A stretch of 64,000 nucleotides of DNA from Geosiphon pyriformis uo1. Its lineage: Eukaryota > Fungi > Glomeromycota. The stretch lies in assembly GCA_016748015.1 (NCBI GenBank), contig JAAOMT010000372.1:806001-870000 (forward strand), read 5' to 3'. The position numbers were made by a program, and so were the translations under genes. Shown one piece after another: positions 1 to 62,000 of this stretch (position 1 is its first letter; every line of letters starts with the position of its first letter). The notes under the pieces were generated by a model. It saw only the letters and a list, made by a program, of their open reading frames with translations, made no database searches and was not told where the DNA came from.

Positions 1-89
1 TCATCATTCAGTATGCTAATTCCAAACTATTTGTGCTTGATTACAAGGCTACTGTTAGCTTTAGTATTGCAGTTTTAAATAAGTCTATT

Positions 90-1874
90 ATGGAGCCTGG
101 CTTTAATATTGGTGTCAAGTCTGCTGAGTCCAGAAAGAAAAAAAAAGGTGGTGTTTTGGAAGATAATATTGGTAATAAAAAATTCATTGCTGCTAAGGTA
201 TCAAGTAGTTATTTTTGGGATTCTAAAACTGGTAATACTACTAAATCTGATAGTGTGGATATGGAGGAGGAATGTTTAGTCGAAGAAATCAGCTTTAATC
301 ATGGGGATGATAAAGCTTTTGCTGGAGAGAACTTAGAGCAAACACCTAAAAGTTTGAAGATTCTTATCAAGAAGATACTTGGAAAGCCACTGAAGAAAAT
401 TAACTTCTTGGATGATGATATTAATGATATATTTTTGGACAAACCTGTGGTTTTCCCTCCCTCTTTCAAGAACTTGGTCAATGTCTCTGTTAAAAAGTCT
501 TTTACTTTGAACATCAACTTAGAAAATATTGTTGGAAAATCTGCTCAGAAAAAGCTTGTGGTTGTCAGAAAATTGTTTTCAAAAATCAATGGTTTTGGAG
601 AGGCCTCTACCCCCTCAAAATTTGCTGGAATTGTCAGAGCAATGTTCACTTCTGAATTGAGTTTGGCACAGGCTTCTAAAAAGGCTAAAAATGCAAAAAT
701 CTTAGTAAACTCCAATCTCAAAAGATTATCTGGACATTCAAATCGGGCTGTGGTATTAAAAAAAATTCTTGTTGGAACATCAACTAAGGCTGTGCATGCT
801 GTGCTATCTGGTTTTGGTATAGTAATGTTAATCAAAATACAGTTGGTGGGTTTGTGGCAGAAGGCTATAGTTGAATTTAATAAGAGTAAATAAGCTGATT
901 TAGTCGCAGCTTGTTGGTTTATCCTGATTGAGAAAGATGCTGTGTGTGTGGCCAGGGCTGATCAAGACAAGAAATTATGAGACATAAGAGATCAACATAG
1001 GGCTTTGCTCTATACTTTGCCAATAGGAACAACTGCTTATGACATTTGAGATTATATTGGCTCTGTGGATAGAAAAACATGTGCAATAGATTATTATCCT
1101 GTTACATATGCTCAGACCAGATGTGCTGTTGTTTGTTTTGAATCAGTCAATTCCTTGAATGCTGTTATGAGAACTACTCTAGTTTTAAGAGGTGTGAATA
1201 TGCATTGGTCTCTTTTGAGTTTTTCTAAATATGCTAAGTATGGGAGATTGGGTCATATATCTTTGGGCTGTGCTGTGGATGAGAATCTTTCCTCTGGGAA
1301 ACCTTCTTGCAAACCTTTCTTAGACATGGATAAAAGCAGATTGGCAATCATCTATGCCAAGCATTCAGCTCCAATTGCTTATTCTATTGCTTTTAGTGGA
1401 GTTTCTTAAACAAAAATTGCTGGTGGAAATGGTTTTTTTTCTTTCTTTGTGCGAAAAGTGTCGATCAATTCCAGCTCCTCTTTGGAAATGAAGCCTACCC
1501 TTTCTGATATGAGTAATGTTGAAAAAAGGTTTGCTGTTTTGAAAAGCAGTCTTGCCAGCCTCGCAGGACAAATTAGTGAGTTGGCTAAGAGGTTAGACTC
1601 ATTTATGCCAGCAGTTTTCCAGTCTAGTCCTGGATGTCAGCTGTTGATGACCACTCCATCACAGAATTGGATGGGTAATGTAGTGATGGGAGAAAATTTG
1701 GGTAAGACTACAAGTGGTAAGACTGCTATGACTTTGGACTCTTCTGCTTTTCCTGAAGTAAAAAGATTGAAAAACATGTTGGAAAGACTTTTTGCTTTGG
1801 TTTTAAGTCTTATAGCAAAGTTTGATGGTTTAATTTTGGCTGGTAGTGTACTTTTTAAATCTTCTTTTCAATGA
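90..1874 (+). pseudogene. LINE ORF1 (gag-like nucleic-acid-binding protein) with in-frame stops
   Basis: ORFs 33-893, 1065-1409 and 1449-1874 share one frame. Degenerate CCHC knuckle (YAKYGRLGHISLGC, ~1230-1270) and a C-terminal coiled-coil (RFAVLKSSLASLAGQISELAKRLD). Confidence 0.75.
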
Positions 1875-4439
1875 CCAATCTAGTTTAGAAGATTGCCACA
1901 TACAATATTAGGGGTTTGAATAATCCTGTGAAACAAGATGATGTGATTTGTTGGCATAAAGAGATGAACAATTTGATTTTTATTGTTACTAAAACTAAGT
2001 TAAGGGGCAAGATCTGCCCATGGATCATGAATAAATTTAATGGTATCCAGGTTTTCACTTTTGGTTTGAACTCTGGTCATTTGGGTTCTGGTATTGGGAT
2101 TATTATGGACAATTCTTTGGTAAAACATGTATATAAGATTTCTGAGGTTTCTGGTTGACTCCTCTCTCTCAAGTTACTCTTCAAGAATAATCTTTCTGTG
2201 TCAATTTTGGGACTCTATGCTGGTGCTTTGTTAGTGGTTTGGTTCTTTCAGACTGGTAAAATCAACTCTCTCATTGCAAAAGCAGTGAATAAGTCCTCTT
2301 TTGTTATTTTGGATGGTGATTTTAATGAAAACAGAGCCCAAAAGTGTGCTAGCTTCAAGAAGTGTTTTGATTTGGGTTTAGTTAATTCTCTAAGGGAAAG
2401 TTTGTTTGTCAAGATGCCTATGTGAACCAATTTTTGTGGTGTTGCTAAAGCTCTCGATTACATTCTTATTTCTTTATGTTTGGTCAATACTATAATAGAT
2501 GGTAGTGTGGCCAATATTAAAGACTATTTTAATACCAATCACAAAGCTGTTTCTGCTTCTATGAGTTTGGGTGGTTTGTTCAATATCTATTTGAGTTCAA
2601 TACACAAGCAGGCAAATAAGAATTGCTGGAAGTTTGATGTCAAAAGTGCGGATAAAGCAATTTGGAGTGAATTTAAGGATGCTACTACAGTTAATGCTGC
2701 TATGTTCTTGGACAAGTTTGAGTCAGCCAAGAAGTTCTCTGATCTGAATGCTATGTGAGATATTGTTTGCAAAGTGATGATTTTTTCAGCTAATGGTACT
2801 TTCAAAAAGAAATGGTTTAAGAATTATGATGGGGTGTTTACCAAAGAGTCTTCCAAGTTGCATAACTTGGAGATTTTGGTTTCAAAAATTGTCAAGGCTT
2901 CTTACGAAGCAGGCTCTGGCAGGTTTGAGTTTCTGTTAAGATGCTGGGTTTCTTTGAATAATGACAAAGCTTCTGTTGTTTGGGATCTTGTGAGTTTTGA
3001 TGCGAGTTTGGATTGTGTTTGTTCTGCTTTTTGTGATGTGAAGAGGTCTTATCATGCCTCTAAACTTGCTGAGTCTTTGCAAGCCGAGGAGTCAGGCATT
3101 AGATCAGCTATTGAAAAAAAGATAGAGAGTTTTGTGATCAACAAAGGCCATACAATCTATAGTGTTTTAGAATGTCCATTCCACAAAGTGGTGTTAGATC
3201 ATTTGGTTTCTGATGGTGGTTTGATTTTGGATCCAATAGAAGTTAAGAATAAGGTAGATGATATAATGAAGGGCTGGATGAGGAAAAGAGCCATGCTAAA
3301 AAGTGTTCCCGATTTGTAGCAGCATTAATATCTGCCATTAGATTATGTCAACAATAATGCTTTTTCTGGTGTAATAAATGCTATTAGTTTGGATAACTTA
3401 ATGTGTGTGATTAAAGATTTACCAAATAGTAAAGCTGCTGGCTTGTCTGGTATTTTGAATAAACTTTGGAAACATTGTGATGGTTTTGTGCTAGGCTTGC
3501 TTCTGGATCTTCTGAACATTTGTTTAGTGTGCGAATTAGTTTTCCATTGTTGGAAAAAAGCTTGGATGTTAATGATCCTCAAGCTCTATGAATAGGAGGG
3601 TGTCTTGACAAATACTAGACCAATCGCTTTAATTGAGACTGCTTGTAAGATTCTTTTTAAGTTGCTGTCTGACAGAATTTTGTCAGTGTGCAGTCTATTC
3701 AATATACTTTGTGAGGACAATTTTTCTGTGCTTAAGAGCACTACCACTCAGTCTCCTATTTTTGCCATTGGTTTGGTTGTTGAAGACACTTTGGAGAAGA
3801 ATCGTGAACTTTGGCTTGTGCTGTAGGATATGCATAAAGCCTATGACTTTGTGGGTTGGTATCACTTGTGTAATAATTTGATTCAGATCAAAATGTGCAG
3901 GTGTTTTATTGGATTTTTTGGTTCTATTCACAATGACCGTGTTAATCAGATTATGACTGATTTTGGTCTAACTAATGAATACCAGGTACATAATGGTCTT
4001 GATCAGGGTGAGGTTTTTTCTCCTTTGCTGTAAAGGATCTTTTATGACCCCCTTCTGTGTGAGATCAAGAAACAGAAAAGCTTATGTGAATACCAAATTG
4101 ATATTAAATTTGTAGTTAGAACAGGTAAAATAGAAAACCAAGGCAGTTTAACTTTGTTTTTGGCTGCTAGTGTGTTTGTAGATAATACTATTTGGGTGAG
4201 TAGCAATCAGGCTGCCACTCAGTATATTTTGAACACAGCAAGTGAATTTTTTAGAGTAAATGACATTTCTATCAATAATGAGAAAACTGTAGCCATTTCA
4301 ATCAATCAGAGAATTGGTAATACATTATTGTCAATTAGTGGTTTGCCAATTTCAATTGCTTGTAAGAAGGAGTCTCATCAGTATCTTGGCATTTATTTGT
4401 CATTTAAGAGTTTGTCCAAACCCAGTTTGGCTAAGGTGC
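1871..4439 (+). pseudogene. LINE ORF2 5' part: AP endonuclease and reverse transcriptase
   Basis: APE motifs IATYNIRGLN, ILDGDFNE, LDYI, TNHKAV; RT motifs KAAGLSG, TRPIALIE, DMHKAYDFV, GLDQGEVFSPLL, FVDNTIW, YLGIYL; many stops. Confidence 0.9.
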
Positions 4440-5293
4440 TGTTACTCATAGAAATATAGGAAATATATTAGCATAATCATTAGCCAATCAGAAGTAAGCA
4501 TAGTAAATGTGAAATTCCAGAATTTCTCTCAGGAATTGCAGGATTCCAGAAATTTCAGGATTCCCAACGAGGAATTGCAGGATTCCAGAATTCCAAGATT
4601 CTTCTCAAAAGAATTGCAGGATTTCAGAAATTTCAGGATTCCTGTCATAAAGAATTGAGGAATTGAGGAATCCCAATTATGTATATATAACAGTAGTGTT
4701 AGAAACAGAAAAGACAGAATCCTTAGCCTAGAAATGCAATCATCAAATAAATAATTATTTTATATCTCCATCTACTTCCCACTATTAACCCTTTATGTTG
4801 ATAGTAAGTGATACTTGATCACGCTAGAACAATAGCTCTTGATTATGGCTATTGACGGAATACTAATCTGCAAATCGCCTTGGCTTATTTCTTTTCTTTC
4901 TTTATTTTCTTTTATTTCTTTTTCTTTATTTTATTTTGATTTGTTGTTGTATACTAATTGATTAAAGATTAAACGCTGAGTTATTGACGTCAAGGATAGC
5001 CTGGTAAAAGACCCAGAAATAAGGGTAGAATTTTATATATTATCGGATAGCTTACTAGAAGAACACGACTGCCAGACTAAATCTGGCCACCACACTGAGA
5101 AAAAAATTGGGAAAACTCTTGGAAAATATATCTACTATCGACACTATTGAATCTCTGTCCATTATACAAAAGACTCAACCAAAACCTTCAGATCCATCAA
5201 AACCTTCAGATATTACCAACAACTTTATATCAATTAAGCACCAAGTTACAGGTTTGTTATTCAATTCAACAACAGAAATAATCACCTGTAACA
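4440..5293 (+). repeat. E1 5' LTR
   Basis: Direct repeat of 13692-14560; TG...CA ends; CCAAT ~4485, GGAATTCC-type array 4511-4675, TATATATAA ~4682, AATAAA ~4747. Confidence 0.96.
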
Positions 5294-5295
5294 TT

Positions 5296-5312
5296 TGGTG
5301 CTCTCTGTAAGG
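5296..5312 (+). other. E1 primer-binding site TGGTGCTCTCTGTAAGG (3' end of elongator tRNA-Met or tRNA-Ile(UAU) type)
   Basis: Begins with TGG 2 nt after the LTR; related PBS in E2, E3 and E4. The tRNA identity is from recalled tRNA ends and is unverified. Confidence 0.8.
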
Positions 5313-5355
5313 TATAATCCTACAGAGAACCAGCACTGACAACACCAAACCAAAA

Positions 5356-8300
5356 GTGGCAGAATCAGAAAACATAGAAGCAAACCATTTAGGATTCGCA
5401 AAATCCTTATTTCAATACTATTGTCAATATTTGGGATTAAATCACAATCATATATCTGCCGAATCAGCCTTTAATTTCTAAGTCAATGAAAAGATTTTCT
5501 CTTTATTAGGAACATCAGTAAATACTGAATCAGCAAGAGAAACTTTCTATAAAGAATTAATTCAAAACACCAACCTACCAACAAACCATAATTTTGCATC
5601 CATCATCACTGAGATCAACAAAGAAATTGAACACCACACTCAACAAAGATATCCAATTACATATGCTAGTAAAGGCAAGGGAAAATTACAAACACCAGTA
5701 TTAACACCCTGAAAAATACAGCCACCTGCTTGGAAGAAAAACAGAGTTGAATCCCCAAGTAACTCATCATACCACTATACACCTGGAAGCACCATCAACA
5801 TATCATTAACCGACACGTTTCCATCAACTGTGACATTAGCATTTGGATGATTCCCATTCCAAAGTAGACAAAGGAAAACAGAATTGTTAGGACCATACAG
5901 TAAATACTTTGAGGGATTTAATTCGCAATCATCAACTCCATCAGGACTTTGATCACTACCGCCTTCACCAGATTTCGGAATCTCTGATCTGTGGGAAGCA
6001 GCAGAATCAAAAAAAGAGGAAAAAAAATCAGAGGATCAAGAATTCACTTATCTACACCCAATCCCTAAAAACCTGGAAGTTGAAACCCCGAACATTCAAA
6101 CTCAGCAACAGTTAGAAAATCCGGAAATCGAAATTCTGAATATTCGAATGCTGCCAAATCCAAAAAATCAAAACCCCGAATTAATTAATCAGCAAAACTT
6201 ACCTCCAGTAATTGTTATCAATTAACTGCTGATTAATCCCATAGCCGAACTCATACAGCAGTCACTTCAGCTACCACCCCAACAGCCAGGACAACAACAA
6301 CTGCTTCAACAGCCACCACAACCACCTAACTTAGATCCAATGGCCTATGCACTAATTGCAAAACTTGACAACTTTACAGGCAAAGAGAATGACGCTTAAA
6401 TATGGCTGAATGATGTAGAAAAGGCCATCACAGCCAACGGATGGAATGACGCTCAAATAATGCAAGCCATTCCCTACTTTCTCAAGGATACTACCAATTC
6501 ATAGTACCAGAGCTTGATTAATAAACCACAAGATTTTAATGCCTTCAAAGTGGAATTCCTAAGATACTTCAGCAACAATAACAGCATCAATTGCCTAGTC
6601 AATGCATTTACCATCATGAAACAAGGAGAAACCAAAGCAGTTACCACTTACCTGGGACGCTTCCATCAAAACTTGCGCCAAATTCAAGCAATTGATGATG
6701 ACTATTTCACAGCACCACAGATACTCAACCAGTTTATCTGTGGCCTACGCAGTAGCATCTTGCAATATGTACATCCGTTGCATCCTGGCATGCTTTAAGA
6801 CGCAATTACATGTGCCAGAGATTTTGAATCTGCTGAGTCAAAGGCTAACCATGCCCAAGCCATTAATCTAGTAATGAATGGATTATCTGAATTGGATTCC
6901 AAATTGAAGAAGTTCAGTAAATCAATCAATAAGAGATTGGAAGGATACTTAGCTGACAATCACACCATTTATCAGCCTCCACAATGACACAATAATCAAG
7001 GAAATTATAATCGTGGTCAAAATCAACCACGTCCATCTTCATCAACCAATCAATAGTGGCAACAAGAAACACGTATCTGCTACTATTATGGTAAACAAGG
7101 ACATATCCAAATTGACTGTTGCCAGCATTTAAATAACCAATGATCAGAAAATCCATATCAAAGCCCTGATCGCCGGTTCCAAACTCCGAATCAGTACCCA
7201 AATCAAAACCCACCCACTTACCTACCAGTGACGCAGTCATCAGTCTATTAGTCTCCAGTATATCAACCTCCAATTTATCAGCCGCAGCCACAAGTAATAT
7301 ATCAACCACAGCCACAAATAATTTATCAACTCCAACAGATCCAAACACTGCCCCAAAACTTACCACCCAACAGAACCCAAAGACTGAGAATGACTCAACA
7401 GAGCTGGAGATTGGCAATGGTAGTTCATCAACCAATCCCCAGTTCTTCACAGCAACCATCTGGATTACGCCAGCAGAATTCAGGTACTGGTCAACCCCAG
7501 AACTATTTAAGTCTCCTGGTCACCCCAGAAGACACTTCAACCAATAACCTGGCATTTACCCAAAAACAACAACTCACCAGTAATATCCCACCTGCTACTA
7601 TCACTAAAGACGAGTCATTGGCCGCTATCTTCCCATTCAAATTCGAGAAAACAGCCACAATGCCATTGTTTAGTGGAGCTGCTCTTGAAGCCAAACTAAT
7701 TACCACAATGTACACTGACACCAAAGTCGAAGGACAATTCATCAAATTGATCCTGGACAGTGGTTTTGCAGGCAGCATAATCACAAGACAACTCATGGAT
7801 CAATTAGGTCACCAAGTTAATCGAGCTGCCAGCGCCAGAATCATCACAGCTGATGGAGCGACCAAAACTCCAATCGGCGAAATCGACGACTTTCTTTTTG
7901 AAGTCAATGGCATTGTGACTTCTATTAAAGTTCTAGTAATGGAAGCCACTCAATACCAAGCTCTTATTGGTAATGACTGGCTATTCAAAGTCAACACAAT
8001 GTTAGACTGGAACATCCAGGAACTCCAGCTAATGTATCAGGGCCAACACATACGTGTCTTGGCCAGGTGTGGCCACTTCAAAACTCCTCCAAGAGAGAAA
8101 CTATTGATCGAACTAAAGGAGGAGAAAAAAAAGCTGACCTGGGAAGCCTATCAAGTGTTGTGGGTGGATGAAGAGCACAACAAACTACTGCTCATACTCT
8201 CCTAAGATGACAGCAACAAGGGAAAAGGAAAACAAAAGGAAGAACTTACCTGGGAAACTGATGACCTGACATGGACTGACAACGATGAAAGCGAACTGAC

Positions 8301-11300
8301 TTCAAGCTGGGAATGGGAAGAGGACAAAGAAAATAAAGGAAAAGGGAAAGAAGAAGAGCCCACCCAAACCATCACCGCCTATAATAATACCTATACTATT
8401 TCACAATGATCTATCTATCATTGACCTAAGCTTATATGCATCAATTGTGGCAAGAAATTGTCATTAATGGGTGCATGCTGTGGTGATGATGAGGAATACC
8501 ACACCACAACAAAATTCTACTGTCGTTCATGCTTACTCGAACACTTCAGACAACCAAAGAGGCAAGGAAAATGGGATAACCAACTGTGTCTCGCTTGTGA
8601 GGAGACCCTGCTAAATGAAAGGATGTGGAACAACATCCTAGGACATGGAAAAACATGTGACACATCGTGTCAATACATGATTCTAATAAGTGATTGAGTA
8701 AGGAAAGAAACCCCAATAGAAGCAGCCTGGAAAAGAGCTGTGCAGCAACTAGACAGTTGTCCACATGATGACAATGAAATTTGGCAAATGGCATTTGCAA
8801 AAATCAAAGGGGCGATGCCAGAAGAGATAAAAACAATCAAAGACAACTCCCCAGAACTTTTAAAGCTTGACTGGGACACAGAACCCATCATAAACCTCTT
8901 AGATCCGGAACAATTCCATGAACACTACCAAGAATTAGCACTCACAAGGGAAGAACAAAAACAATGGTTAGAGCAGTTGAACGCTTGACTATGTCAATAC
9001 TGCCTAATTCCCTGTGACTTCCAGTACTGTAATAAGTGTGACCTCATTTACAATCCACCACTATGCATGATCTATTCGATCCCTGAAGAAGAACCAATCA
9101 GCAGCTGCACATCAGAATCAGAATTGCTGATCAATCACAATTCAAACTCCAACGATGACAATGATAACAACGGTTCAAGCTCCATTCAAATTGGCAATGA
9201 TGATGAAAACAATTTAGACTCAGATTCAAAACCCAATGTAAACTATGAACAATACATTGCACTACCAGATCTCTCCAAGGAACAAGAGTTGAAATGGTAT
9301 AGTGACAATGGAGAAGGTATTATGCCAGAACGTGCGCATGACATGGATGCAGGGTTTGATCTGAGATATCCAGGAAAAGATGCCATCAAATTAGAACTGC
9401 ATTCACGCACTTGCATTGATCTGAAAATAGCACTAGAAATTCCGGCAACAACAATGGTTCAATTAGCATCTAGGAGTAGTTTAGCAAAAAGAGGGATCAA
9501 TATAAGAGGAGGAATAATTGATGCAGGATATGTAGGAAATATCATCGCCATGCTACAAAATAACTTAGAAAAAGCCTATATAATAGAGCCTAATGAAAAG
9601 ATAGCACAGGCAATATTTCTGCCTCTGATTAAAGTACCTCAGTTAGTGTCAGTGGGAAAGAGGAAAGAATTGGGAATAACAGCAAGGGGAATACAAGAAT
9701 TTGGATCAATGAGTAGAATAGAGGTATCAGTTAATATGGCGGAGGAAGAGATTGTTGGCCAAGAAGAAATTATCTCAACTGGTCAAGCTATTTCCATTCC
9801 ACCATATAGCCAGTACATGTTAGCAATAGAAAGGAAGGAAAAGGAGCAAGAACAGATTTTTGAAGTGGAAGCAACCCTTTGTGAATCAGAAGAGATTGGG
9901 TTGATCAATCTCCACATACCAGCCAAAAGCTATAGCAGCATAAAAATTCCCATCTACAACAACACTGGCAATATCATCAACATACCAGAAGGAACCATCA
10001 TTGGATATCTAACCATAGAAATAGAAGACCAACCACCAAACTCCATTCCAGACTTTTCACAACTTTGTGGATATGTTGACATCACATCACAGACAATCTA
10101 TGGACGAGATAAATGTTATTTGCTCCAACCAGAACAATTGGAACAAATGAACATGGGAAACTTAGATCCACTCCAATATATGCAGCTCAAGATATTACTC
10201 AACAATTTCAACGACATCTTTGCCAGCGAAAATAAGTTTGGCCAAACTGACATCATCCAGCATCAGATCAAGACTGGAGATGCAATGCCAATTAAACAAA
10301 AAGCATACAGAGTGCTGCCAGCCAGCCATAAGATTATTTGTCAAGAGATAAACAGAATGCTTGACAATGGGTTAATTCAACCATCAATAAGTCCATGGTC
10401 ATCACCAGTAGTACTTGTCCATAAGAAAAATGGAAAAATCCAGTTTTGTGTAAACTACAGGAAACTCAATGGTGTAACTCGTGGAGACAGTTATCCAACT
10501 CCACAAATACAGAAATTATTTGATGCTTTTGGTGGGAACAAATGGTTTTCTACATTAGATATGGACAGTGGTTACTGGCAAGTAGCCATGAATCCAACTG
10601 ACAAAGAGAAGATGGCATTTACTACTAGAGAAGGGAATTTCGAATTTGAAATAATGCCATTTGGCTTAACCAATGTCCCAGCAACTTTCCAATGGCTAAT
10701 GGAAATCATTTATACTGACTTATTGTAGAAATTAGTAGTTGTATACTTGGACAACACCAATGTATTTTCAAAGACATTTGATGATCATCTTCATCATCTT
10801 CAATAAGTGTTCGAAAGACTGAGAAGAGCAGAACTGAAGTTAAATGCGACAAAATGCTTCTTTGGCAAGACGGAACTCAAATTCTTGGGATACATAGTTA
10901 GCAAAGATGGCATCAAAACAGATCCAGAAAAAATAAAGATAGTAAAGAACTTTCCAGTGCTGACCAATATAACAGAACTGAAATCATTCTTAGAATTTGC
11001 CAGCTACTATCGTCGTTTTATCAAGAACTTTTTCAAGATAGCACAGCCACTCAATCAACTACAAAACAAAAATGCAAAATATGAATGAACAGAAAGTCAA
11101 CAAGAAGCTTTTGATATTCTGAGGAAAAAGCTCATCCAAGCTCTAATACTAATCTATTCAGATTACAGCAAACCATTCATCATCACCACTGATGCATCCA
11201 GCCAAGCATTGGGAGCAGTATTATCTCAGAGAGAACTGAACGGCAGGGAACATCCAGTAGCATATGCCAGCAAAGGTTTAACACCAGCCAAAAAAAACTA

Positions 11301-11547
11301 TGGAATACCAGAACAAAAACACTTAGCAATATACTGAGCCGTCATGAAATGGAAAGAATACTTGAGCCAGAAGTTTGAAGTATACACAGATCACAAAGGA
11401 TTAACATCACTCCAAAAACAAGAATTTGGAGATGGAAGACAGTCAAGGTGGAAAATGGCACTTACACTATACAATTATACTATACATTACAAAAAGAGAA
11501 AAGACAACGGAAATGTTGACGGTTTATCGTGAATAAGACAAATCTAA
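5356..11547 (+). pseudogene. E1 single-frame Gag-PR-Cys-rich-dUTPase-RT-RNaseH polyprotein with in-frame stops
   Basis: All fragments (6514, 7390, 8458, 8740, 9067, 10807, 11344) share one frame. Capsid from ATG 6340; CCHC ~7078-7120; protease LILDSG ~7748; dUTPase ~9300-9715; RT (PWSSPVVLV, LDMDSGYWQV, YLDN); RH (TDAS, YTDH). Confidence 0.93.
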
Positions 11548-11610
11548 GAACATTTCAACCCAAAAATATAATAAAACCAGAACAATACCAACAGAAAAAT
11601 ACAACAAAAA

Positions 11611-12993
11611 ATGAACATACAAAAATATCAACAATTGCAACATTATCTAAACACTCAACAGTTCAAGGAGAATTTATCTCATACGGAATGAAGGAGTATC
11701 AAACACCAATCAAAATATTTCATCACTCACCAAAATATACTTTATCAGAAAAATAGAAGGGATCCAGATCAACCAACCAAAGTAATTATGGAGCCAGAAA
11801 AAGAGACAATATTATTCAACATGCACTCAAATCCAACAGCAGGATATTTTCACAAAGAAGCAATCATGGAAAGAACTAGAAAAAGATACTATTGGCCATC
11901 AATGTACCTAGACATTATTCAATATGTTCAAAATTGTGACACTTGTTAGCGAAGAGGAGAAACAAGACCCAGTGAACCATTAAGACCAATTAAAGTGGGA
12001 CAACCATTTGACTGTATGAGAATTGATTTAGTAGGACCATTAACAATCACCAGCAGAGGAAACAAATACATAGCAGTAGCTATGGACTATCTCACTAAAT
12101 GGCCAAAGGCGAAAGCAATTCAAAGAGTGGATGCAGAATCCGTTGCCGAATTCATTCATCAGGATTTGATTTGTCAACATGGATGTCCAAAAGAATTATT
12201 ATCAGACCAAGGAACTCATTTTGTGAACAGAACATTAACAGAATTGAGCCAAAGATTCAGAATCAAGAGACCATTATTATCATCATACTATTCACAAACC
12301 AACGGATTAGTAGAAAGATTCAACAAAACATTGTGTGAAACAATAGCCAAGCTCAGCCAAGAAAACCAGAATGATTGGGATTTGTTCATACCATCAGTAC
12401 TATTTGCTTATTGGACAACGAAACAAGATACTACACAAGCAACACCATTTGAATTAGTATATGGGAGAATAGCAACGTTATCAGTAGAGAGAGAAATTAA
12501 TACATATCCAGCTAAACCAATAACAGAGGGAAATTTTCAAGAAACATTGCTGAGAAGAACATATGACTTAATGGAAACATTGGAAAACAAATGAAGAAAA
12601 GCAGCTGATAATATCCAAAAATCACAAGAAACACAGAAAGAAAGACACGATAGTCAACTACCAGACAAACCAGTTGAATTCAAGATTGGAGACAAAGTAT
12701 TACTACATTGTACCAAAGCAAAAAAACAATGGAGTGAAAAATTTGACTCCAAATGGGACGGATCATTTCACATAGAAGAAATTCTAGGAAATGAAGCTTA
12801 CAAATTAAGATTGGATAACAAAATTTTAACCAAAGCAGCACATGGAGATTGACTGAAACCATATCATAACATTACACTACTATCTACCAGTAATATTTCA
12901 CAATTAGGAGTACAGAGAATACTAGTCCAACCAGATGAGATTCCACGAGATCAGGAACCAATCATTATTATCGACAACAACACATTAAATTGA
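11611..12993 (+). pseudogene. E1 integrase, separate ORF (HHCC, DDE core, GPF/Y motif)
   Basis: MHSNPTAG..CDTC; IDLVGPL, SDQGTHF, NGLVERFN; KWDGSF; own ATG after the stop at 11545. Confidence 0.92.
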
Positions 12994-13006
12994 TCCATCA
13001 AAAAAA

Positions 13007-13013
13007 TATATAA
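13007..13013 (+). promoter_or_regulatory. Putative internal TATA box for ORF3 (also 25820 in E2 and 28169 minus in E3)
   Basis: TATATAA lies 41-42 nt upstream of the ORF3 ATG in all three complete elements despite divergent flanks. Confidence 0.6.
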
Positions 13014-13047
13014 GGACATGGTAGACGTGACAGGAAATATCAAAAAA

Positions 13048-13677
13048 ATGGAAATTACAGACAACATTTACTCACTAGTACAACAACTCTTTCAATTAAT
13101 CCAACACCAGGAAATGGAAATTACAATCAATCAACAAACCATTCAATATCAAGATACTAGAAAGACATTTCAACTCAGAACACAGAAGAAAACTGAAAAT
13201 CCTGTGGACAAAATCATGGCAAAAGTAAAATTAGCAATAAAAGAATTGACAAAAGAGTCACTATATCAAGAGTTGACTAAAGAAACTTGGAATTGGTGGA
13301 TACAACAATTTCCACGAAACTATTGTTATTTTTACTTAGGACAACATGTAAATATACAGAATCTATATACGAATAAGACAAAGCAATTATTCGGCAAAAG
13401 AATACTACAACAATTAAAATATTTTTTGGGAAAAAACAACTTATCCACACAAGCCCAAGCCATATACCAAATACACACAGTATTTCAAGATAAACCAGAA
13501 ATATTGCTCAACAGAGCAATGGATATGGTGACCAGTAATCAATTGGGAAAAATCACCAATGCTTAATTTGAAAAATTACAGGCCCAAATAACACAAGTAA
13601 TTCTCAAAAACAAAATCCAGGAAATACTTCAAGAGGGGGAATTACAGGAGTTAGATTTCGATGGAACTCAATATTAA
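13048..13677 (+). pseudogene. E1 ORF3, unknown ~209-aa soluble protein (one premature TAA)
   Basis: Lies between IN and PPT; ends LDFDGTQY* abutting the PPT; homologues in E2 and E3. Confidence 0.85.
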
Positions 13678-13691
13678 AAAGGAGGGAATAA
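13676..13691 (+). other. E1 polypurine tract
   Basis: AAAAAGGAGGGAATAA immediately before the 3' LTR; equivalents in E2 (~26495-26510) and E3 (~27485-27499 minus). Confidence 0.9.
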
Positions 13692-14560
13692 TGTTACTCA
13701 TAGAAATATAGGAAATATATTAGCATAATTATTAGCCAATCAGAAGTAAGCATAGTAAATGTGAAATTCCAGGATTCCTCTTAAGAATTGCAGGATTCCA
13801 GAAATTTCAGAATTCCCAATGAGGAATTGCAGGATTCCAGAATTTTAGGATTCCTCTCAAAAGAATTGCAGGATTCCAGGAATTCCAGGATTCCTGTCAT
13901 AAAGAATCGAGGAATTGAGGAATCCCAATTATGTATATATAACAGTAGTGTTAGAAACAGAAAAGACAGAATTGATACCACAGAATCCTTAGCCTAGAAA
14001 CACAATCATCAAATAAATAATTATTTTATATCTCCATCTACTTTCCCACTATCAACTCTTTATATTGATAGTAAGTGATACTTGACCATACTGGAACAAT
14101 AGCTCTTGATCACGGCTATTGACGGAATACTAATCTGCAAATCACCTTGGCTTATTTTTTTTCTTTCTTTATTTTCTTTTATTTCTCTTTCTTTATTTTA
14201 TTTTGATTTGTTGTTGTATACTAATTGATTAAAGATTAAGCGCTGAGTTATTGACGTCAAGAATAGCCTGGTAAAAGACCCAGAAATAAGGGTAAGATTT
14301 TATATATTATCGGATAGCTTACCAGAAGAGCATGACTGCCAGACTAAATCCAGCCATCACGCTGAGAAAGAAATTGGGAAAACTCTTGAAAAATATATCT
14401 ATTATCGACACTATTGAATCTCTGTCTATTATACAAAGGACTCAAACAAAACCTTCAGATCCATCAAAACCTTCAGATATTACCAACAACTTTATATCAA
14501 TTAAGCACCAAGTTATGGGTTTGTTATTCAATTCAACAACAGAAATAATCACCTGTAACA
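13692..14560 (+). repeat. E1 3' LTR
   Basis: Direct repeat of 4440-5293, with an extra ~15 bp between ACAGAAT microhomologies. Confidence 0.96.
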
Positions 14561-14564
14561 GTAT

Positions 14565-18185: not shown

Positions 18186-21100
18186 GTGGCAAAATCAGAA
18201 AACATAGGAGCAAACCATTTAGAATTCACCAAATCCTTGTTTCAACAGTACAGCCAACAATTAGGATTAAACAATAACTTTTTTCCAGCAGAATCAGCCT
18301 TCAATTTCTATGTTAATGACAAAATCACAGACTGCTTAGAAGGAACAGTTAACATTAAATCCACAAGAGAAAATTTTTATACAGAATTATTTCAACATAC
18401 CAGTTTACCAAGAAATTATAGTTTCACACCAATCATCAGGGAAATCAATTAAACCATTGAAAGATACACACAACAACAATTCCCAATTACCTATGCAGAC
18501 AAAAAAAAGGGAAGAATACAAACACCAGCAGTGACACCAAAACAAATACAACCACCTACTTGAAAGAAAACCAGAGTTGAATCACCAACAAATCCATTAT
18601 ACCATTACACTCCAGGAAGTGCTATCAACATCTCATCAACAAACATGTCCACATCACACGTGACATTAACATTTGAATGACTCTTATTTCAAAGTAAACA
18701 AAAAAAAGCAGAATTACTAAGAACCTACAATGATTATTTTGAAGAATTTAAATCATGATCACCAATGCCATCAGAATTCCAATCACCACCACCTCAACCA
18801 GATTTTGGAAACACAAGTCTCTGGGAGATAACGGAATCAGAAAAGGAAGAAAAAAAAGAAGCTGAAAATCAGGAATTTACTTACCAGAATCCAATTACAG
18901 AAAATCCAGAAATAGAAACCCTGAATATTCAAACCCAGCAAACTCCGAATAATCTAAACCCCAAGTTAATTAATCAAAAAAACATACTTCCAGTAATCAT
19001 TATTGATCAGCCACCAATTGTACTAATATTGAAACCAATTCCACCACAGCCACCACAGCAATCTATTCAACCACCACTACAACAACCACAACAACTGATT
19101 CAACCGCTACAACCACAATTTCAACAACTTCCACAACAATAAATCATAGCACTAATAGTATATGTTCTTATTGCCAAACTTGAAAAATTTACCAGCAAAG
19201 AGAATAACACTCAAGTGTGACTAAACAATGTGGAGAAAGCCATTGCAGCCAATAGATAGGATAACACCAGAGTCATGCAAGCCATTCCCTATTTTCTCCA
19301 AGATACAGCTGACTTATGGTATTAAAGCTTGGTTAACAAACTCCAAGATTTCAATGCATTTAAGCTTGCATTCCTACAATACTTCAGCAATAATAATAGT
19401 ATTAATCGGCTAGCAAACACTTTTACCACTATCAAACAAGAGGAAAATGAAGCAGTCATTACTTACCTAGAATGCTTCCATAGAAATCTGCACCAAATTC
19501 AAGCAATCCAAGCTGACTATTTTACAGTGCCACAAATACTAAACCAATTTATTAGAGGTCTGTACAGTAGCATCTTCCAATGCATATGCCCAATACATCC
19601 AGTAGACCTTCAAGCCATAGTTACCAATGCCTAAGATTTTGAAGCAACTAAACTCAAAGCTAATCATGCCCAAGCCATGAATCTAGTAATGAACGGATCA
19701 TCTAAATTGGATTCCAAATTAAAACAATTCAGTAACTCAATTAATCAGAAATTAGAGGAATACTTAGCTGACAATCACACAATTTATTAATCTCCTCAAT
19801 GATGCAATATTCAAGAAAATGCAAATTGTTTCTAGAATTAATCGCATCTATCTTCCTCGACCAATTAACAGTGACAGCAGGAAATGCGTGTTTACCACTA
19901 CTGTGGTAAACAAAAACATTTAAGAATTGACTGTAGGTTAAGAATAGATAACCAATGATTGGAAAATCAATATCAAAACCCCGATCACTGGTTTCCAACT
20001 TCAAGTTATCAATCCAACTCAGCACCATATCAACTGACTTATCTGCCAATGATGCAACTGCTAATATATCAACTATCTGTATATCAACCTCCAGTCTATT
20101 AACCACAGCCACCAGTAATATATTAACCACTGCAGCCACAAATTGTTTATCAGACACCTGCAGTTCAAACACTGCCATCAAACCCAGCTCAAATAACATC
20201 AGAAAACTCCAGATCAAGAGTTATCCAAAACTGGAAATTGGCAATGGTTGTTTACTAACTGATTCCCAGTTTATCTAACCAGCCATCAGAATCACGACAG
20301 TGGAATTCAGGAACTTGGTATACCCAAGACTGGAGTTTTCAGAACTATTTAAGTTTCCTGGTTACTCCAAAAGATGCCCAACCCAATAATCTGGAAACCA
20401 ACTAACAATCAACACTTATCAACAATATCCCACCAGCAACTATTTCCAATGACAAATTTTTAGCAGCTATTTTTCTTTTTGAATTTGAGAAAATCATACA
20501 CATTCCATTATTCAGTGGAGCCACTCTTGACACCAAACCAATTATCATCATGTACACTAATGTAAAGGTTGATAGTCATGCCATTAAACTAATACTAGAC
20601 AGCAGATTAGCTGGTAGCATCATTACACAACAACTTATAAACCAATTAGGTCACCAAGTTGATCACACTGCTAGTGCTCGTATAATCACCACTGATGAGA
20701 CAACCAAAACTCCTATTGGCAAAATTGATGACTTCTCTTTTGAAGTCAATGGCATCATCATTCCCATTAGAGTTCTAGTAATAGAAGCAACTTAATATCA
20801 GGCATTAGTAGGAAATGATTAATTATCTAAAACCAATGCCATACTTAATTGGACGATGCAAGAGCTTCAACTCAGCCAAAATGGCCAGCACACATGAGTA
20901 TTTGCTATGTGTGAACACTTCAAACCCATCACTATGCCATCAGCCCCACTTATCAAATTTGAAAAAGAAAAAGAGAAACCTACCTGGAAAGCCTACCAAG
21001 TCTCTTAGACCAATGAAGACCACAACAAACTACCACCAATACTTTCTTGGAACAATAATAGAAAGAGAAAAAAAAAAAAAGAACTTACCTAAAACGCCAA

Positions 21101-26510: not shown

Positions 26511-26761
26511 TGTTACTCATAAAAAAAAAACAGATATAAAGAAAATAATAGACCAATAAGTAAATAGTATTTAGCACATAAGCACATTGCAGCAATATAG
26601 AGCAATAACAGAAATCATGGCATATTGTTCAGCAATGTGGAACAATATCAGAAAGCATGGCATATTGCTCAGCAATGTGGAGTGATATTAGAAAATTAGG
26701 GCACATTGCTCAGTGAGCATTGCTTAAGAAATAATAGCACATCACTCGGAAATGTGAACAA
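26511..26761 (+). repeat. E2 3' LTR, U3 part
   Basis: Matches 17203-17458; preceded by the PPT. Confidence 0.93.
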
Positions 26762-27484
26762 TATTACAAGTGATTGTTTGAAGTCTCAAGTCAAATAACA
26801 CATTCATAACTTGGTGCTCAAAGCTATTCACGTGGATAATAATCTGAAGGTTTTGGTTGAGTCCTTTGTATAATGAACAGAGATTCAATGATTGTTTATT
26901 CACAGCTTCCCAAAACTGCAGTTTTGTCAATTTTTTTTTCAGCTTGGTGGCCAGTAATTCTCTTGGTAAGATATCTTCAATTCCGAGTGTTTACCCTTAT
27001 TCCTGGGTTTTTTACCAGTGCTATATCCTAATGTTAGTACTTCTGTGTGATAATCCTCAATCAAGTTAATAAACAACAAAATCAAATCAAAGAAAAGAGA
27101 AAATAAAGACAAATAAAAGAAATAAGCCAAGGTGGTTTACAAGTTAGTAATCTGTCAATAGCCATGATCAAGAGCTATTGTTCCAGTGTGATTAAGTACT
27201 AATTACTATCAACATGAAATGTTCTTAAATTAAATTTAAACTGAAAGGTCTGTCTTTTTAGTTTCTAACACTACTGCTATATATACATAATTGAGATTCC
27301 TCAATTCCTCAATTCTTCATGACAGGAATCCTGGAATTCCTGGAATTCTGGAATTCTGGAATCTTGCAATTCTTTATGTAAGAATCCTGCAATTCCTGAA
27401 ATCCTGGAATTCCATATTTACTATATCTACTTCTGATTGGCTAATAACTATGCTAATATGTTTCCTATATTTCTATGAGTAACA
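26762..27484 (-). repeat. E3 3' LTR (internal deletions)
   Basis: Repeat of 35884-36733, ~125 bp shorter; adjacent PPT. Confidence 0.93.
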
Positions 27485-27497
27485 TTATTCCCTCCTT

Positions 27498-28127: not shown

Positions 28128-28180
28128 TTTTCTGATATTTTCTGTCACATCTACTATGTCTTTTATATATTTTTTGTCAA

Positions 28181-29560: not shown

Positions 29561-29622
29561 CTTTTGTTATATTTTTATTGGGTTTGGTTTGGTTTTGTTA
29601 TATTTTTTGGGTTGAAATGTTT

Positions 29623-32600: not shown

Positions 32601-35600
32601 ACTTGTCTTGTCTCTTGAGATACCCATAGCATTCACAGTGGCATGGTTTGCAATAGTAATGGGTGCATGTCCAATAGTCTTCATCTAATGCAACTCAAGC
32701 TTCCATTGAAGACAACTTCTTGTTGCAGTCTTTACACTTGAGAGGAATACATGGTGGCTCTGGTCTGGTGTTGGTTGAGTAGGTTTTTCCCCAGTCACTG
32801 GTGCTGGCTTTGGTGGTTTTGTTGGTTTCAAGTTGGTTTTTTTCATTTTTTTTCCCTTTTTCTTGATTGCTTTCTTCCCACTCCCAGATTGATAAGTCTT
32901 CTTAATCATTGCTGATTTCCCAGGCTTGGTTAGTGTTCCAAGTAAGTTCTTTCTTTTTTTTTCTTTTTTCTTAGTCATTGTCATCCCAGGCAAGTATTGG
33001 TGGCAATTCGTTGTGGTCGACATTGGCCCATGACACTTGGTATGCTTCCTAAGTGAGTTTTGGCTTCTCTTTCTCCAAGTCAATTAGTGGGACTGGCATG
33101 TAACTGGGTTTGAAATGGCCACACGTTGCTGGTACTTGTATATGTCAGCTGTTTTGGCTAAGTTGCAACTCCTGAGTGGTCCAATCGAGGATGGCATTTG
33201 TTTGGTGAGCCAGTCATTACCAACTAGTGCTTGGTATTAAGTGGCTTTCATCACCAAAACTTTGATAGGAACTATGATGCCATTGGCTGTGATGATCTTT
33301 GTGCTGACAGCTCTGTCAATTTGGTGACCTAATTGATCCATGAGTTGTTTAGTGATGATGCTGTCAGCTGATTCACTATCCAGGATCAGTTTGATATACT
33401 GACCATCGACTTTGGCATCAGTATACATCACTGTGATGGGTTTTTCTTCTAGGGCAGCTCCACTGAATAATGGTACTGTTGTGATTTCCTTGAGTTCAAA
33501 AAGGAATATGATGGCTAAAGATTCATTGTCAGTGATGGTTGCTGGTAAGATGTTGTTGGTAAGTGTTGTTGGTTGATTTGGTTCTGGGTTGTTAGAAATG
33601 ACATCTTCTGGAATAACCAGAAGACTTAAATAGTGTTGCAAATTCAGGTTTTGGGTGGAACCAGTACCTGAATTCCACAAGTGTGATCCAGTAGGTTAGT
33701 CAGAGGAGCTGAGGATCAGTTGGTGTACAACCATTGCCAATTTCCAGTTTTGTGTAATTCTGGGTCTGGAATTTCTTAATGTCATTTGAGCTGGATTTTG
33801 GAGCAGTGTTTGAATTTGTTAAGGTTAATAGATTACTTGTGGCTGTGGTTGATAAATTGTTGGTGGCTGTGGCTGATAGATTGTTGTTGTTGACTGTGGT
33901 TGATAAACTGTTGGAGGTTGATAAACTGGAGCCTGATATATTTGTGGTTGATATATTAGTGACTGCATCATAGGTAGGTAAATAGGTTAATATTGTTCTT
34001 GATTTGGGTAGTGATTCAGAATTTGAAATAGGCAATCAGGATTTCTATATTGATTTCCCAATCATGAGTTATTATACATTCAGCAGTTGGCTCTAAGGTG
34101 TCCTTGTTTACCACAGTTGTAACAGACACACATTTCTTGCTGCCATGGCTAATTGGAGAACATTGTAAGATGTGACTGATTTTGGAAACAATTGGCATTT
34201 TCTTGATTACTGCGTTATTGTGAAAGTTGATAGATTGGGCAATTGTTAGCTAAGTATCCCTCTAATTTCTGATTAATGGAATCACTGAATTGTTTCAGTT
34301 TAGAATCCAAGTTAGATGACCTATTCATTACTAAATTCACAGCTTGGGCATGGTTGGCTTCTAACTCGGCAGCTTCAAAATCTTTAGCATAAGTAACTAC
34401 GGTAGGAAGGTCTACCAGATACATTGAATGTACTCATTGAAAAATGCTGCTGCATAAGCCTCTGATGAACTGATTTAAGATTTGTGGCGCTGTAAAGTAA
34501 TCAGCTTGGATAGCTTGGATTTAGTGCAGATTTCTGTGAAAGTGTCCTAAGTAAGTGGTGACTGCTTCTGTGTCCTCTTGTTTTATGGTGGTGAAAGTAC
34601 TTGCCAGGCAGTTGATGCTGTTATTATTACTGAAATATCTTAGGAAGTCGATTTTAAATGCATTGAAATTTTGGGGTTTCTGGGCCAAGCTATGATACTA
34701 TGAATTGGTGATATTCTTTAAGAAATATGAGATGACTTGTATTGTTCTTGTGTCATCTTAATTGTTTGCAGTAATGGCTTTGGCGATGTCATTAATCCAT
34801 GCTTGGGTGTTATCTTCTTCGCCAGTGAACTTCTCAAGTTTTGCTATTGGTGCAAAAGTCATTAGTGTGATTGGTTGTTGTTGTATTGGTAATTAAAACT
34901 GTTGTTGTAAATGTTAAATTGGTTGTTAGATAAGTTGCTGTAGTGGTAGTTGTGTTATTGGATCAATGGGTGGTTGATCAATGACAATATTTGGAAGTAA
35001 GTTCAGCTGATTAATTGCCTTGAGGTTTTGATTGTTCTGATTTGGCTAAGCTTGAAAATTTGGAGTTTGAATGTTTAAGGTTTCAAATTCTGGGTTTTTT
35101 GAGATTGGGTTTTGGTAAATAAATTCTTAATTCTCAGATTCTTCTTCCTCTTCTTCCTGTTCTTCTTCTAATTCTGTGACTTCCTAAGAACTCATGGTTC
35201 CAAAATCTGGTTGAGGTGGCAGTAATCGAAATTCTGATGGTGTTGGCAATCATGATTTAAATCCTTCAAAATATGTGCCATATGGTCCTAATAAGTGTTC
35301 TTTTCTTTGTTTGCTTTGAAATAAAAATTGTCCAAATGTTGATGTTGCATTTGATGTAGATGCACCTGTTGATAAGATATTGATGGCACTTCCAAGTATA
35401 TAATAATATGATAGATTGGTTGGTAATTCAACTCTTGTTTTCTTCCAAGTAGGTAGTTGTATCTTTTGGGGTGTTACTGCTGGTGTTTGTAGTTTTTCTT
35501 TACCTTTGCTTGCATAAGTAATTGGGTATCTTTGCTGTATGTGATATTCGATTTCTTTGTTGATCTCAGTAATGATGGATGCAAAATTATGATTTGTTGG

Positions 35601-35822
35601 TAGGCTGGTGTTTTGAATTAATTTGTTGTAAAAAGTTTCTCTTGCTGATTCAATATTTACTGATGTACTCAACAAATATGCAATTTTCTTATTGACATAG
35701 AAATTGAAGGCTGATTCTGCTGATATGTGATTATAGTTTAACCCTAAGTGTTGGCAATAATATTGAAATAAAGATTTTGTGAATCCTAAATGGTTTGCTC
35801 CTATGCTTTCTGATTCTGCCAC
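29623..35822 (-). pseudogene. E3 Gag-PR-Cys-rich-dUTPase-RT-RNaseH polyprotein, decayed
   Basis: ORFs 35250-35822, 33237-33680 (LILDS), 30868-32097 (dUTPase and RT start), 30106-30351, 29719-29961; ends RQI*. Confidence 0.92.
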
Positions 35823-35883
35823 TTTTGGATGGGGTTGTTAGTGCTGGTTTTCTGTAGGATTATACCTTACAGGGAGCACCAAA

Positions 35884-58964: not shown

Positions 58965-59006
58965 TTTGGTGCTCTCCCATGAAAATAACACAGCAACAAA
59001 TTCAAA

Positions 59007-62000
59007 GTGGCGACTGCCTTAGACATCACAACCTTATAGTACTATCAATCGATTTACACACACTGCAAACAACGATTTGAAATACACGACGAAATCATAG
59101 TTTTCAAGAAAACACTTTTTTAATACATCAAAAATCGAATCAATGACTATCTCTTTGGGAACTATAACATTACAACAGTTAAAAGAGATCTTCTTGAGAA
59201 CATATTACACTATTCCAACACTGAATCAGAAAACATTAGTGCTGAAGCTTGTGCTACTTATTTTGAGGAACTCGATTATAATATCATTTGATTCTGTGAA
59301 GAAAAATATCTTGCAAATGCACAATTTGCCTTTGAACTCGAATCTGAACCTAAAACCAGTAGCAACAAAAGACAAAAAGATAACCGACCTGTTCATACAA
59401 CACCCAATACTCCCAAAATATCATTCAAACATTTACAAACACCTGAACAAGGAACCAGCTCAAAACTTTCACTTACTATTACACCTTTTCCAGCTTTACT
59501 TGCACAAGCCCAAACACTTAATTCATCTTTGAATCGATTTGCAAGACCAGAAGATTTTACATCACTCAGAAGTCCTACCAGACAACAAGAACCCTTTCAA
59601 ACTAGTTCTAATCTCCTTGATTTTCTAGCTGAAAACCAAAGTGAACACTCTGAGACAGCAGCAAATGAAGACAACAACTCTGAAATAACCGAAGAAGAAT
59701 CAATAGACAGTGAAAATGAAGAAGACGAAATGACAACATACATTGCAAAAATCCCTGAATTCAATGGAGAAGATATTGAGACCAGTCCCCAAGAATGGCT
59801 CGATCAAGTTACTAAAGCTGGAGATGCAAATGAATGAAATGCTGCCAGAATGTTAAGAACAATTCCCTACTTTCTCAAAGGAACAGTAGGAGAATGGTTT
59901 GAAAACCTTGCCGCCCCATTTAATGATTGGAACGCTTTCAAAGCAGCCTTTCTTGAACAGTTCACTGACAATAATACCTCTATCACTCTTCGCAATCATT
60001 TTCGAAATATCAAACAAGAACCCTTCGAATCTGTTATGACTTATATTGGAAAATTTAACAAACTTCTCAGATGGATTTGCCAACTCGAGACAAACGATTA
60101 TTATTCCGATGCTCAAATCTTGAATCAATTTATCGCTGGTCTAAAAGATAAACTAATTAAAAAGGTTCACCCACACACACCAGAAAATTTAAACTCTGCC
60201 ATATAGCATGCGAAAAGATACGAAATGGCCATGGAAAAGGCCAATTGTACAAAACTTGTAAATTTGGCAATTGAAAAAACCAGCTCGGCAGCTGAGAAAA
60301 AAATTGACCAACTCACAAAGAAGGTCGAAAACTATTTTACCAACCAACAACAACAACAACTCCAAAGATATCAACCACCCCAAAGATGAAATCAAAATAA
60401 CTTTGCACCACTTTCCAATAACCAGCCCCAAAATTGCCATTACAGTGGAATCTTTGGCCACTGGAAAAGAGATTGCAGAAAGCTACAGCAAGACCAACAA
60501 AACAGGGGTAATCAACATTACTCTCCACCACAGCAATCTTACTATCAACCATCACTACCAGCTTACTATCCACCAAGACCCCAATACCAAAATAACTATT
60601 ATCAGCCCACTTCACAACCAATCCAACAGCAATACCAACAACCACCCACACAATATTATCAAGTACCTACTCGAAGACTGATTACACAAAATCAATTCAC
60701 ACCACAAAACCGATACCAAGTAAACAACAATAGAATTAGTTCGAACAACCAATTGGTTCCCCAAAATTCCACTCAACCAAGATCCAACCACTACCACACT
60801 CAACCCAGTTATTTAACAATGCCAGAAGAACAGGATTTTCACTATACTGCACTCTCAGAAGGTAGAACTGCAGCACAACAACAACAAAACCCTTCTCATA
60901 ATCACACCACTATTCCACCAGCCTGAATTGCTGAAAACGCCAATCTCTCTGATATCTTTCCTTTTGAATTTGAAGCAAATGAATCACCATTCTTGCTTAG
61001 CAATGCAGCGGCTAATGAGCAAAAAGCCATCACTGCAATGTACACAGAAGCTGAAGTAGAAGGAAAGCCAATTTGCTTGATCCTAGACAGTGGATCCGCC
61101 AGAAGTATTATCACCTACCAGTTAATGCAACAGTTGAAAAGAAATGTTGACTGACCAGCTCAAATAATAATCGTTACTGCCGATGACATGAAAAAGACAC
61201 CAGTAGGAGAAATTGACAATTTTCCATTCACTCTTGATGGAATCACCATTCCAGTCAAAGTTCTTGTAATGGATACACCCCAGTACTAAGCTCTCATCAG
61301 AAATAATTGGTTTCAAAAAGCCAATGCTAATCTAAATTGGGAAACACAAGAGTTAACAATCTCCTACCAAGGACAACACGCCCGGGTACCTGCCATTTGT
61401 AGTACATTCAACAAACACTCTGAAAAAGCCCCGGCTTTTGAATTTGAACCAGAAGAAGAAAAACCAATAATCGAAACATTCATGGCTCTTGGATCAATGT
61501 CCAACTGGGCCGATGAAACAGAACAAGAACATTTTACTCTACACACTAAACCTGAAACCTTTGGATAGAATATACCTTACTCAAAACCCGAACCAAAGAA
61601 ACAATACCCCTATATTCTCCTTAAATGTAAGGACTGCCACAAAAAACTATTGTCAATGGGAGCCTGCATTTCACCTGAAGAAGAATATGAGAATCATATT
61701 TGTTATTACTGCAAGGCTTGCCACAGAGAGTGATGGGGCCATCTAATAAAAAGGAATGGAAAATGGGACAACACCTCTTGTTTGACTTGTGGAGATATAC
61801 TACCGGAAGAATGCAATTAGATTGATGTAGCAATGAGAGGAAGCATCTGTGATCAGACCTGCCAATATGCTTTATCAATTTCAGAAAAAGTAAAAAGAGG
61901 AACACCCTTTAATGCAGCATACAACAGTGCTCTCAACAAACTTTATCACTACCCTCATGATGCTGAGATGATTTTTGACCTAGCAATAGCATTAATTAAT

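Follow-up and report, generated by a model that had tools for sequence, protein, structure and literature searches.

Four related long terminal repeat (LTR) retrotransposons, designated E1 to E4, occur in a 64,000-nucleotide (nt) stretch of the Geosiphon pyriformis uo1 genome (contig JAAOMT010000372.1, positions 806,001 to 870,000 of the forward strand; hereafter the window). In each of them, a long coding region without an AUG start of its own precedes the capsid ATG in frame. Judging from the sequence around this region, a GUG codon in strong context probably serves as the start of a long form of Gag, with leaky scanning past it supplying a short form from the same RNA. By the sequence hallmarks described below, E1 to E4 are Ty3/gypsy elements, and all of the copies are decayed.

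4440-14560, forward strand: E1, an LTR retrotransposon
17203-37393, forward strand: E2, an LTR retrotransposon
26762-36733, reverse strand: E3, which sits inside the 3′ LTR of E2
From 57990, forward strand: E4, which runs off the end of the window and belongs to a distant family (capsid 35% identical to that of E1)

The N-terminal extension of Gag is a real coding sequence under purifying selection. Measured from the GTG to the capsid ATG, its length is 328 codons for E1 and 241 for E4, in keeping with a preliminary description of this DNA, which had placed a conserved region of about 330 and 240 codons ahead of the capsid ATG and had held it to lack an AUG start. Among E1 to E3, dN/dS is 0.09–0.33 over codons 1–110 and 0.31–0.35 over codons 111–200 (three pairs each), and 0.07–0.17 in the capsid. 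The extensions of the E1 and E4 families are weakly homologous to one another (best pairwise E 0.03), and their alignment starts at a Lys-Val pair, not upstream of it.

5356..5358, forward strand: GTG, predicted start of long Gag, in the context AAA-GTG-GC and at the first column of homology between the families
6340..6342, forward strand: capsid ATG, a conserved Met at which short Gag is predicted to start
18186..19154, forward strand: E2 extension from its GTG; the capsid ATG has decayed to ATA
34863..35822, reverse strand: E3 extension from its GTG, after a 29-nt spacer
59007..59729, forward strand: E4 extension from its GTG, after a 13-nt spacer

All four window copies keep AAAGTGGC with its GTG (5356 in E1), as had been described before, and all have AAA at −3 to −1 and GC at +4/+5. 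Homologues were taken as the best 120 of 250 protein matches for the E1 family and the best 120 of 172 for the E4 family; all 240 of those listed are hypothetical proteins of a single species, Geosiphon pyriformis, and one is separated from the E3 translation by 0.01 changes per column. Of these models, 177 cover the start column, where Val occurs in 149 (86 of 96 in the E1 family and 63 of 81 in the E4 family), Met in 17, Leu in nine, and Ile and Glu in one each. The Met:Ile ratio of 17:1 compares with 8:119 in 11 other columns with a Val majority, and such a skew toward Met, given decay from G to A, points to a GTG codon in both families. GTG makes up 46 of 305 Val codons (15%). Ten of the 17 Met residues are first residues, a position favored by the gene finder. 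An A at −3 and a G at +4 have been described as typical of conserved non-AUG starts in fungi (PMC5487733), AAA-GTG-GC agrees with the context reported as strong for non-AUG initiation (PMC3542737, PMC5487733), and GUG has been ranked second to CUG in initiation efficiency (PMC5666671).

A weak start would allow leaky scanning, and leaky scanning would in turn require that few AUGs precede the next useful one. In fact, ATG is scarce over the roughly 1.6 kb located 5′ of the capsid ATG, and is not scarce 3′ of it. Relative to dinucleotide shuffles, 16 ATGs were observed in the leader where 34.7 were expected and 22 in the extension where 47.6 were expected, compared to 76 versus 77.7 in the capsid and 279 versus 287.5 in pol. 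Codon shuffling gave the same picture for out-of-frame ATGs in the extension (18 versus 31.3 ± 4.7, P 0.004), and no deficit in the three downstream regions (capsid, protease and pol). Met accounts for 0.29% and 0.14% of residues in the extension versus 1.20% and 1.47% in the capsid. The extension has 12 ATG sites, of which only one is common to E1 to E3 and eight carry a CpG-decay signature; in the reverse transcriptase (RT)-RNase H region, 15 of 57 sites are common. The Met at the capsid ATG is found in 45 of the 54 E1-family models that cover the site and in 69 of 107 in the E4 family, with 27 more placing it one column off. As in glyco-Gag-type systems, then, an in-frame near-cognate codon in strong context lies 5′ of a conserved Gag AUG, and few AUGs occur between the two.

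From these signals, we infer that the GUG would start the extension of 241–328 codons, that the majority of scanning ribosomes would bypass it, traverse the AUG-poor kilobase and start at the capsid AUG, and that a single RNA would then yield both long and short Gag. GUG initiation was the fallback of the preliminary description, and the signals at the homology boundary suggest that the fallback was probably right; its observations were likewise largely right, and the mechanism it put first was probably wrong. That mechanism was an exon carrying an ATG within the LTR, joined by splicing to an acceptor immediately downstream of the primer-binding site (PBS). The features in question are as follows.

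4682..4751, forward strand: TATA-like box (4682) and AATAAA, a candidate poly(A) signal (4746), both of putative function
4781..4805, forward strand: predicted hairpin, with the LTR ATG and the donor GT both lying in its 3′ arm
4795..4818, forward strand: LTR ATG and a seven-codon upstream open reading frame (ORF) on unspliced RNA, of the same length in E1, E2 and E3
4804..4967, forward strand: candidate intron within the LTR, with a GTAAGT donor, a branch-like word at 4861, a pyrimidine tract and a first AG at 4967
5252..5325, forward strand: candidate intron of 74 nt that would span the end of the LTR and the PBS, from a GTTTGT donor to a CTACAG acceptor
5296..5313, forward strand: PBS, 2 nt past the LTR, containing an in-frame stop; its first 10 nt are common to E4
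5326..5355, forward strand: spacer between acceptor and GTG, A/C-rich and U-poor, variable in length and phase, and likely untranslated

The motifs of the proposed exon are where they had been reported in E1 (ATG at 4795, GTAAGT at 4804 and TATAATCCTACAG ending at 5325), and likewise in E2 and E3; an acceptor-like counterpart, TAACACAG, was also confirmed at the same place in E4. As a general mechanism, the in-frame join does not hold. The spacers of E1 to E4 measure 30, 30, 29 and 13 nt, giving phases 0, 0, 2 and 1, and the gene models show all three phases in both families, such that donor and phase are not conserved together. The ATG exon is absent from the E4 LTR and hence is not a feature of both families. 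The E1-family tree has 97 rows (94 models plus the three window copies, with E3 entering twice), of which 10 are uninformative or ambiguous; among the 87 that can be classified, 74 are in the phase of the ATG exon and 13 are out. The 1-nt shift of E3, previously attributed to decay, proved to be a trait of its whole branch (17 rows, SH-aLRT 87), where one of the 12 clear rows is in phase and the other 11 are not. For the E4 family, 62 of the 120 models have a readable junction, with spacers of 13, 14, 15, 16 and 17 nt in 2, 1, 5, 27 and 9 models, respectively, and 18 unclear; on one branch (support 99), the spacer is 17 nt in three of three. The in-frame stop said to bound the region upstream was located in E1 at 5308–5310, inside the PBS, and it fails as a general boundary, with 11 of the 62 E4-family models open across the PBS in frame with Gag. 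A branch-like TAAC reported before the E4 CAG fared no better: related gene models have Gln (CAA) at that point, which makes the E4 TAA a likely product of C-to-T decay, and it was rejected as an ancestral branch point.

It is nevertheless conceivable that a three-codon LTR exon starts long Gag in subfamilies of the E1/E2 type, in which spacers of 30 and 27 nt keep the join in frame and such a start could operate. The LTR ATG is present in five of six LTRs and is the sole one of nine leader ATG sites common to E1 to E3, the donor core GATAGTAA is invariant in six of six LTRs, and one of the 120 gene models (P0033) is predicted in exactly this form. Even so, this start seems unlikely. Beyond the loss of frame in the E3 branch and the lack of such an ATG in E4, the LTR ATG has a poor context (a pyrimidine at −3 and a T at +4) and lies within the hairpin, a nearer acceptor occurs 151–165 nt downstream of the donor in six of six LTRs, and the intron would span 522 nt, roughly fivefold the length of the longest among 14 host introns. 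Those introns, read by hand, measure 55–107 nt and use donors that include GTTTGT and GTAAAA, and a jump of 522 nt past a nearer acceptor is therefore improbable. In the gene models, many different donors are joined to the acceptor, which is how a gene finder would behave if it steered around stops, and a strong AUG start would leave the ATG-poor extension unexplained. The extension might also be translated by another route: by reinitiation after the seven-codon upstream ORF, by ribosome shunting, by internal entry or from a different near-cognate codon nearby. Such routes are common in viruses (PMC3542737), and the leader, of about 650 nt, is long and has a conserved short upstream ORF. A start codon would still be required, and at the homology boundary no candidate other than the GTG was seen in every one of the four copies, which leaves these routes doubtful.

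The start codon might instead be split, with an exon ending in A spliced after AAAG onto TG, thereby forming an AUG at the very same position and removing the PBS. Under this arrangement, AG-TG would be equally invariant and the protein would begin at the same place; an A does precede the hairpin-linked donors of E1 to E3 and the E4 candidate, and gene models sometimes use that AG (nine have Leu at the start column). In addition, AAG ends six of the 14 host introns (window 40000–50500), a high share by comparison with the usual acceptor preference for CAG or TAG. What makes a split codon quite improbable is that the 20 nt before AAG contain 5–15% U versus at least 35% in 12 of the 14 host introns, that a competing CAG lies 14–31 nt upstream, that three E1-family models from a single branch place Asn ahead of the Val and consequently lack the AG, and that the branch-like word in the spacer appears to vary like decayed CpG. 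Finally, the GTG could be an artefact of decay at a former ordinary ATG, given Met in 17 of the 177 models and four heavily mutated copies. Val in 149 models of two families runs counter to this idea, as does the direction of mutation: decay from C to T and G to A, evident in a CpG observed/expected ratio of 0.14–0.42 within the elements, turns GTG into ATG and not the reverse. An ancestral ATG lost in this manner was rejected on these grounds and is highly improbable.

Several points weigh against GUG initiation with leaky scanning. Copies beyond the window are known as predicted proteins, from which spacer lengths were inferred backward, and the gene finder that predicted them favors ATG starts. 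The E1- and E4-family trees are both quick trees, and in the main E4-related subfamily the 15-, 16- and 17-nt spacers are scattered on the tree, a pattern consistent with A-runs slipping repeatedly; some of these lengths may date from after insertion or be assembly errors. Most classifiable E1-family rows do hold the phase of the LTR exon, and the first four codons of the spacer look conserved in the way coding codons are. CAT is scarce in the leader as well (29 versus 48.9), and the P values for ATG depletion overstate independence because E1 to E3 are related. A purine occurs at −3 of the capsid ATG in E4 only, and no significant hairpin was predicted 3′ of the GTG in any of the four copies (z −0.9 to 0.5).

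Under GUG initiation, the splice-like sites upstream would likely shape the untranslated leader only. Leader splicing would probably take the form of two short introns, one within the LTR and one over the PBS. The layout of the first is seen in six of six E1–E3 LTRs, with the branch-like word at +58/59, the AG at +151 to +165, and an AG-free stretch of 82–95 nt that is 73–77% pyrimidine. For the second, each of the four copies has an AG 13–30 nt 5′ of its GTG; in E1–E3 this AG site resembles host acceptors (30–40% U). The GTTTGT donor-like word at 5252 is one that host introns use, and the resulting 74 nt would fall in the host size range; this word is changed in E3 and has GC in E4, and further donor-like words occur at 5004 and 5025. 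Removal of the PBS by a splice in the untranslated leader is plausible, with roughly even chances on these sequence features. Such a splice would produce an mRNA lacking the PBS and leave the protein unchanged, and it is possible that translated, PBS-less mRNA and genomic RNA form separate pools by this non-coding route. The hairpin over the LTR donor was significant in four of four E1–E3 LTR copies folded (z −2.8 to −4.6), and its E4 counterpart was not (z −1.07, with 30 of 200 shuffles equally stable). By analogy alone with foamy viruses, whose donor in R suppresses 5′ polyadenylation through U1, the covered donor may govern the choice of poly(A) site in addition to splicing or in its place.

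The extension begins with a predicted domain, followed by a long linker.

5356..5685, forward strand: N-terminal domain of about 100 residues, with four predicted helices and no known family
5686..6339, forward strand: linker, basic, Ser/Thr/Pro-rich, acidic and Gln/Pro-rich, and nearly free of ATG

AlphaFold places four helices across residues 3–98 with pLDDT near 80, and the remainder is mostly of low confidence. Foldseek searches of PDB and BFVD gave no match to the fold at E ≤ 0.001, and the best VIA match (Z 6.9, root-mean-square deviation 4.4, 97 residues) is ordinary for a helical bundle. Likewise, no sequence relative was found in PDB, no family in Pfam, and no usable match in the ESM Atlas for the extension of either family. 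In retroviral Gag, the corresponding place is occupied by matrix. The long form is predicted, from this model, to add a four-helix domain where retroviral Gag has matrix. Divergence within this domain among E1 to E3 (dN 0.07) is far below that of the capsid (0.18), which may reflect recombination. Taken together, one might tentatively propose that a fixed GUG start and a kilobase purged of ATGs set the Gag ratio across the lineage, that the helical domain rides on the long form, and that leader introns cut out the primer site to separate translated from packaged RNA.

The remaining architecture of the elements is that of Ty3/gypsy. TG..CA LTR ends, a short target duplication (exact in E2, with decayed flanks in E1 and E3; E4 leaves the window), a PBS and a polypurine tract are all present, and Pfam matches follow in the order Retrotrans_gag, gag-asp_proteas, RVT_1, Integrase_H2C2 and rve, with integrase last as in Ty3/gypsy. 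A dUTPase lies between the protease and the RT (Pfam), and RNase H is placed by a motif only. No tRNA genes were found in the window, and the primer tRNA was not matched from within it.

4440..5293, forward strand: E1 5′ LTR, with TG..CA ends and 4-bp flanks that match at two of four positions; 93% identical to the 3′ LTR at 13692-14560
5356..13677, forward strand: single Gag-Pol frame with extension, capsid, protease, dUTPase, RT, integrase and C-terminal tail, interrupted by many stops

The E1 frame covers about 2,780 codons from the GTG to a stop adjoining the polypurine tract, and coding regions show just 0–3 frame changes per copy over 4–8 kb. Gag and pol are therefore joined without a frameshift (5356–13677), an arrangement that by itself gives no account of a Gag excess over Pol. 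Between protease and dUTPase, a Cys-rich segment of about 420 residues (7993–9246) is conserved in E1 to E4 and has no Pfam match. A tail of about 250 residues after the integrase (12943–13677) is 41–70% identical in E2 and E3 and has no convincing Pfam match; a Chromo domain was not matched there at E ≤ 0.5 in E1, whose tail is decayed. The U3 regions of the E1 and E3 LTRs (window 4510–4670) contain tandem and inverted repeats of a unit of about 24 nt, and the units of E2 and E4 differ. The low CpG ratio noted above (4440–14560, 26757–36733 and 57990–64000) compares with 0.93 in the gene-rich 40–50 kb region and is consistent with decay driven by methylation. Directly after E1, a decayed frame bearing RNase H (14549–15910) belongs to another element type, and similar decayed sequence occurs at 1–4400.

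Searches beyond these families yielded little. The PBS-acceptor DNA pattern had no matches in viral contigs, metagenome contigs gave nothing for the extension alignment, and the RT alignment, likewise without a match in viral contigs, found 19 distant loci (28–44% identity), of which none matched the extension, Gag or dUTPase. A search of long proteins with the dUTPase region gave four matches, all from Geosiphon pyriformis, and Rfam returned only weak microRNA-like scores far below threshold. Among the titles and abstracts listed by searches that covered few subscription journals, no non-AUG extended Gag was found for a mobile LTR retrotransposon family, and no PBS-removing leader splice for an LTR retrotransposon. 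If GUG initiation is correct, retrotransposons can produce Gag isoforms through start-codon strength, Gag gains an uncharacterised N-terminal domain, and many “hypothetical proteins” of Geosiphon (the 250 and 172 matches) would be pieces of retrotransposon Gag with the wrong start. The depletion of ATG 5′ of the capsid is also a usable signature for scans.

Extended Gag proteins with non-AUG starts are already known from murine leukemia virus (MLV) and the domesticated PEG10. The fungal elements resemble MLV glyco-Gag in having a non-AUG extended Gag, with initiation here suggested by sequence; the mouse retrovirus uses CUG and its extension bears a signal peptide and yields a glycosylated surface form, whereas the fungal elements have GUG, 241–328 residues and a predicted helical domain. 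PEG10, as described, also makes a Gag-like protein from an upstream in-frame CUG and from AUG, with an intron in its leader, but it is a non-mobile, domesticated mammalian host gene with a 34-residue extension (PMC2800197). Fungal precedent for a long conserved extension from near-cognate codons in optimal context comes from Neurospora cpc-1, which differs in being a host transcription factor with conserved CUG, AUU and ACG codons (PMC5487733). Rice tungro bacilliform virus provides a scanning parallel, in which the first start is not an AUG and ribosomes scan on to a later ORF across about 895 nt without other AUGs (PMC3542737), though this plant pararetrovirus makes separate ORFs rather than isoforms of one Gag. 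With respect to the leader, foamy viruses are described as having a donor in the LTR, 5′ of the PBS, with RNA structure governing access to it (PMC3694450), and E1 to E3 have an LTR-internal candidate donor 5′ of the PBS in a structured region, as judged by sequence and predicted fold. In foamy viruses, however, that donor is reported to lie on the 5′ side of the poly(A) signal, with gag coming from unspliced RNA (PMC5294762), whereas the candidate E1 donor at 4804 lies 3′ of the AATAAA candidate at 4746. Finally, a dUTPase between protease and RT has been described in Postia PosPlaTy3-5 and in gypsy elements of Phanerochaete and Tuber (PMC2864245), an arrangement that the Geosiphon elements share.

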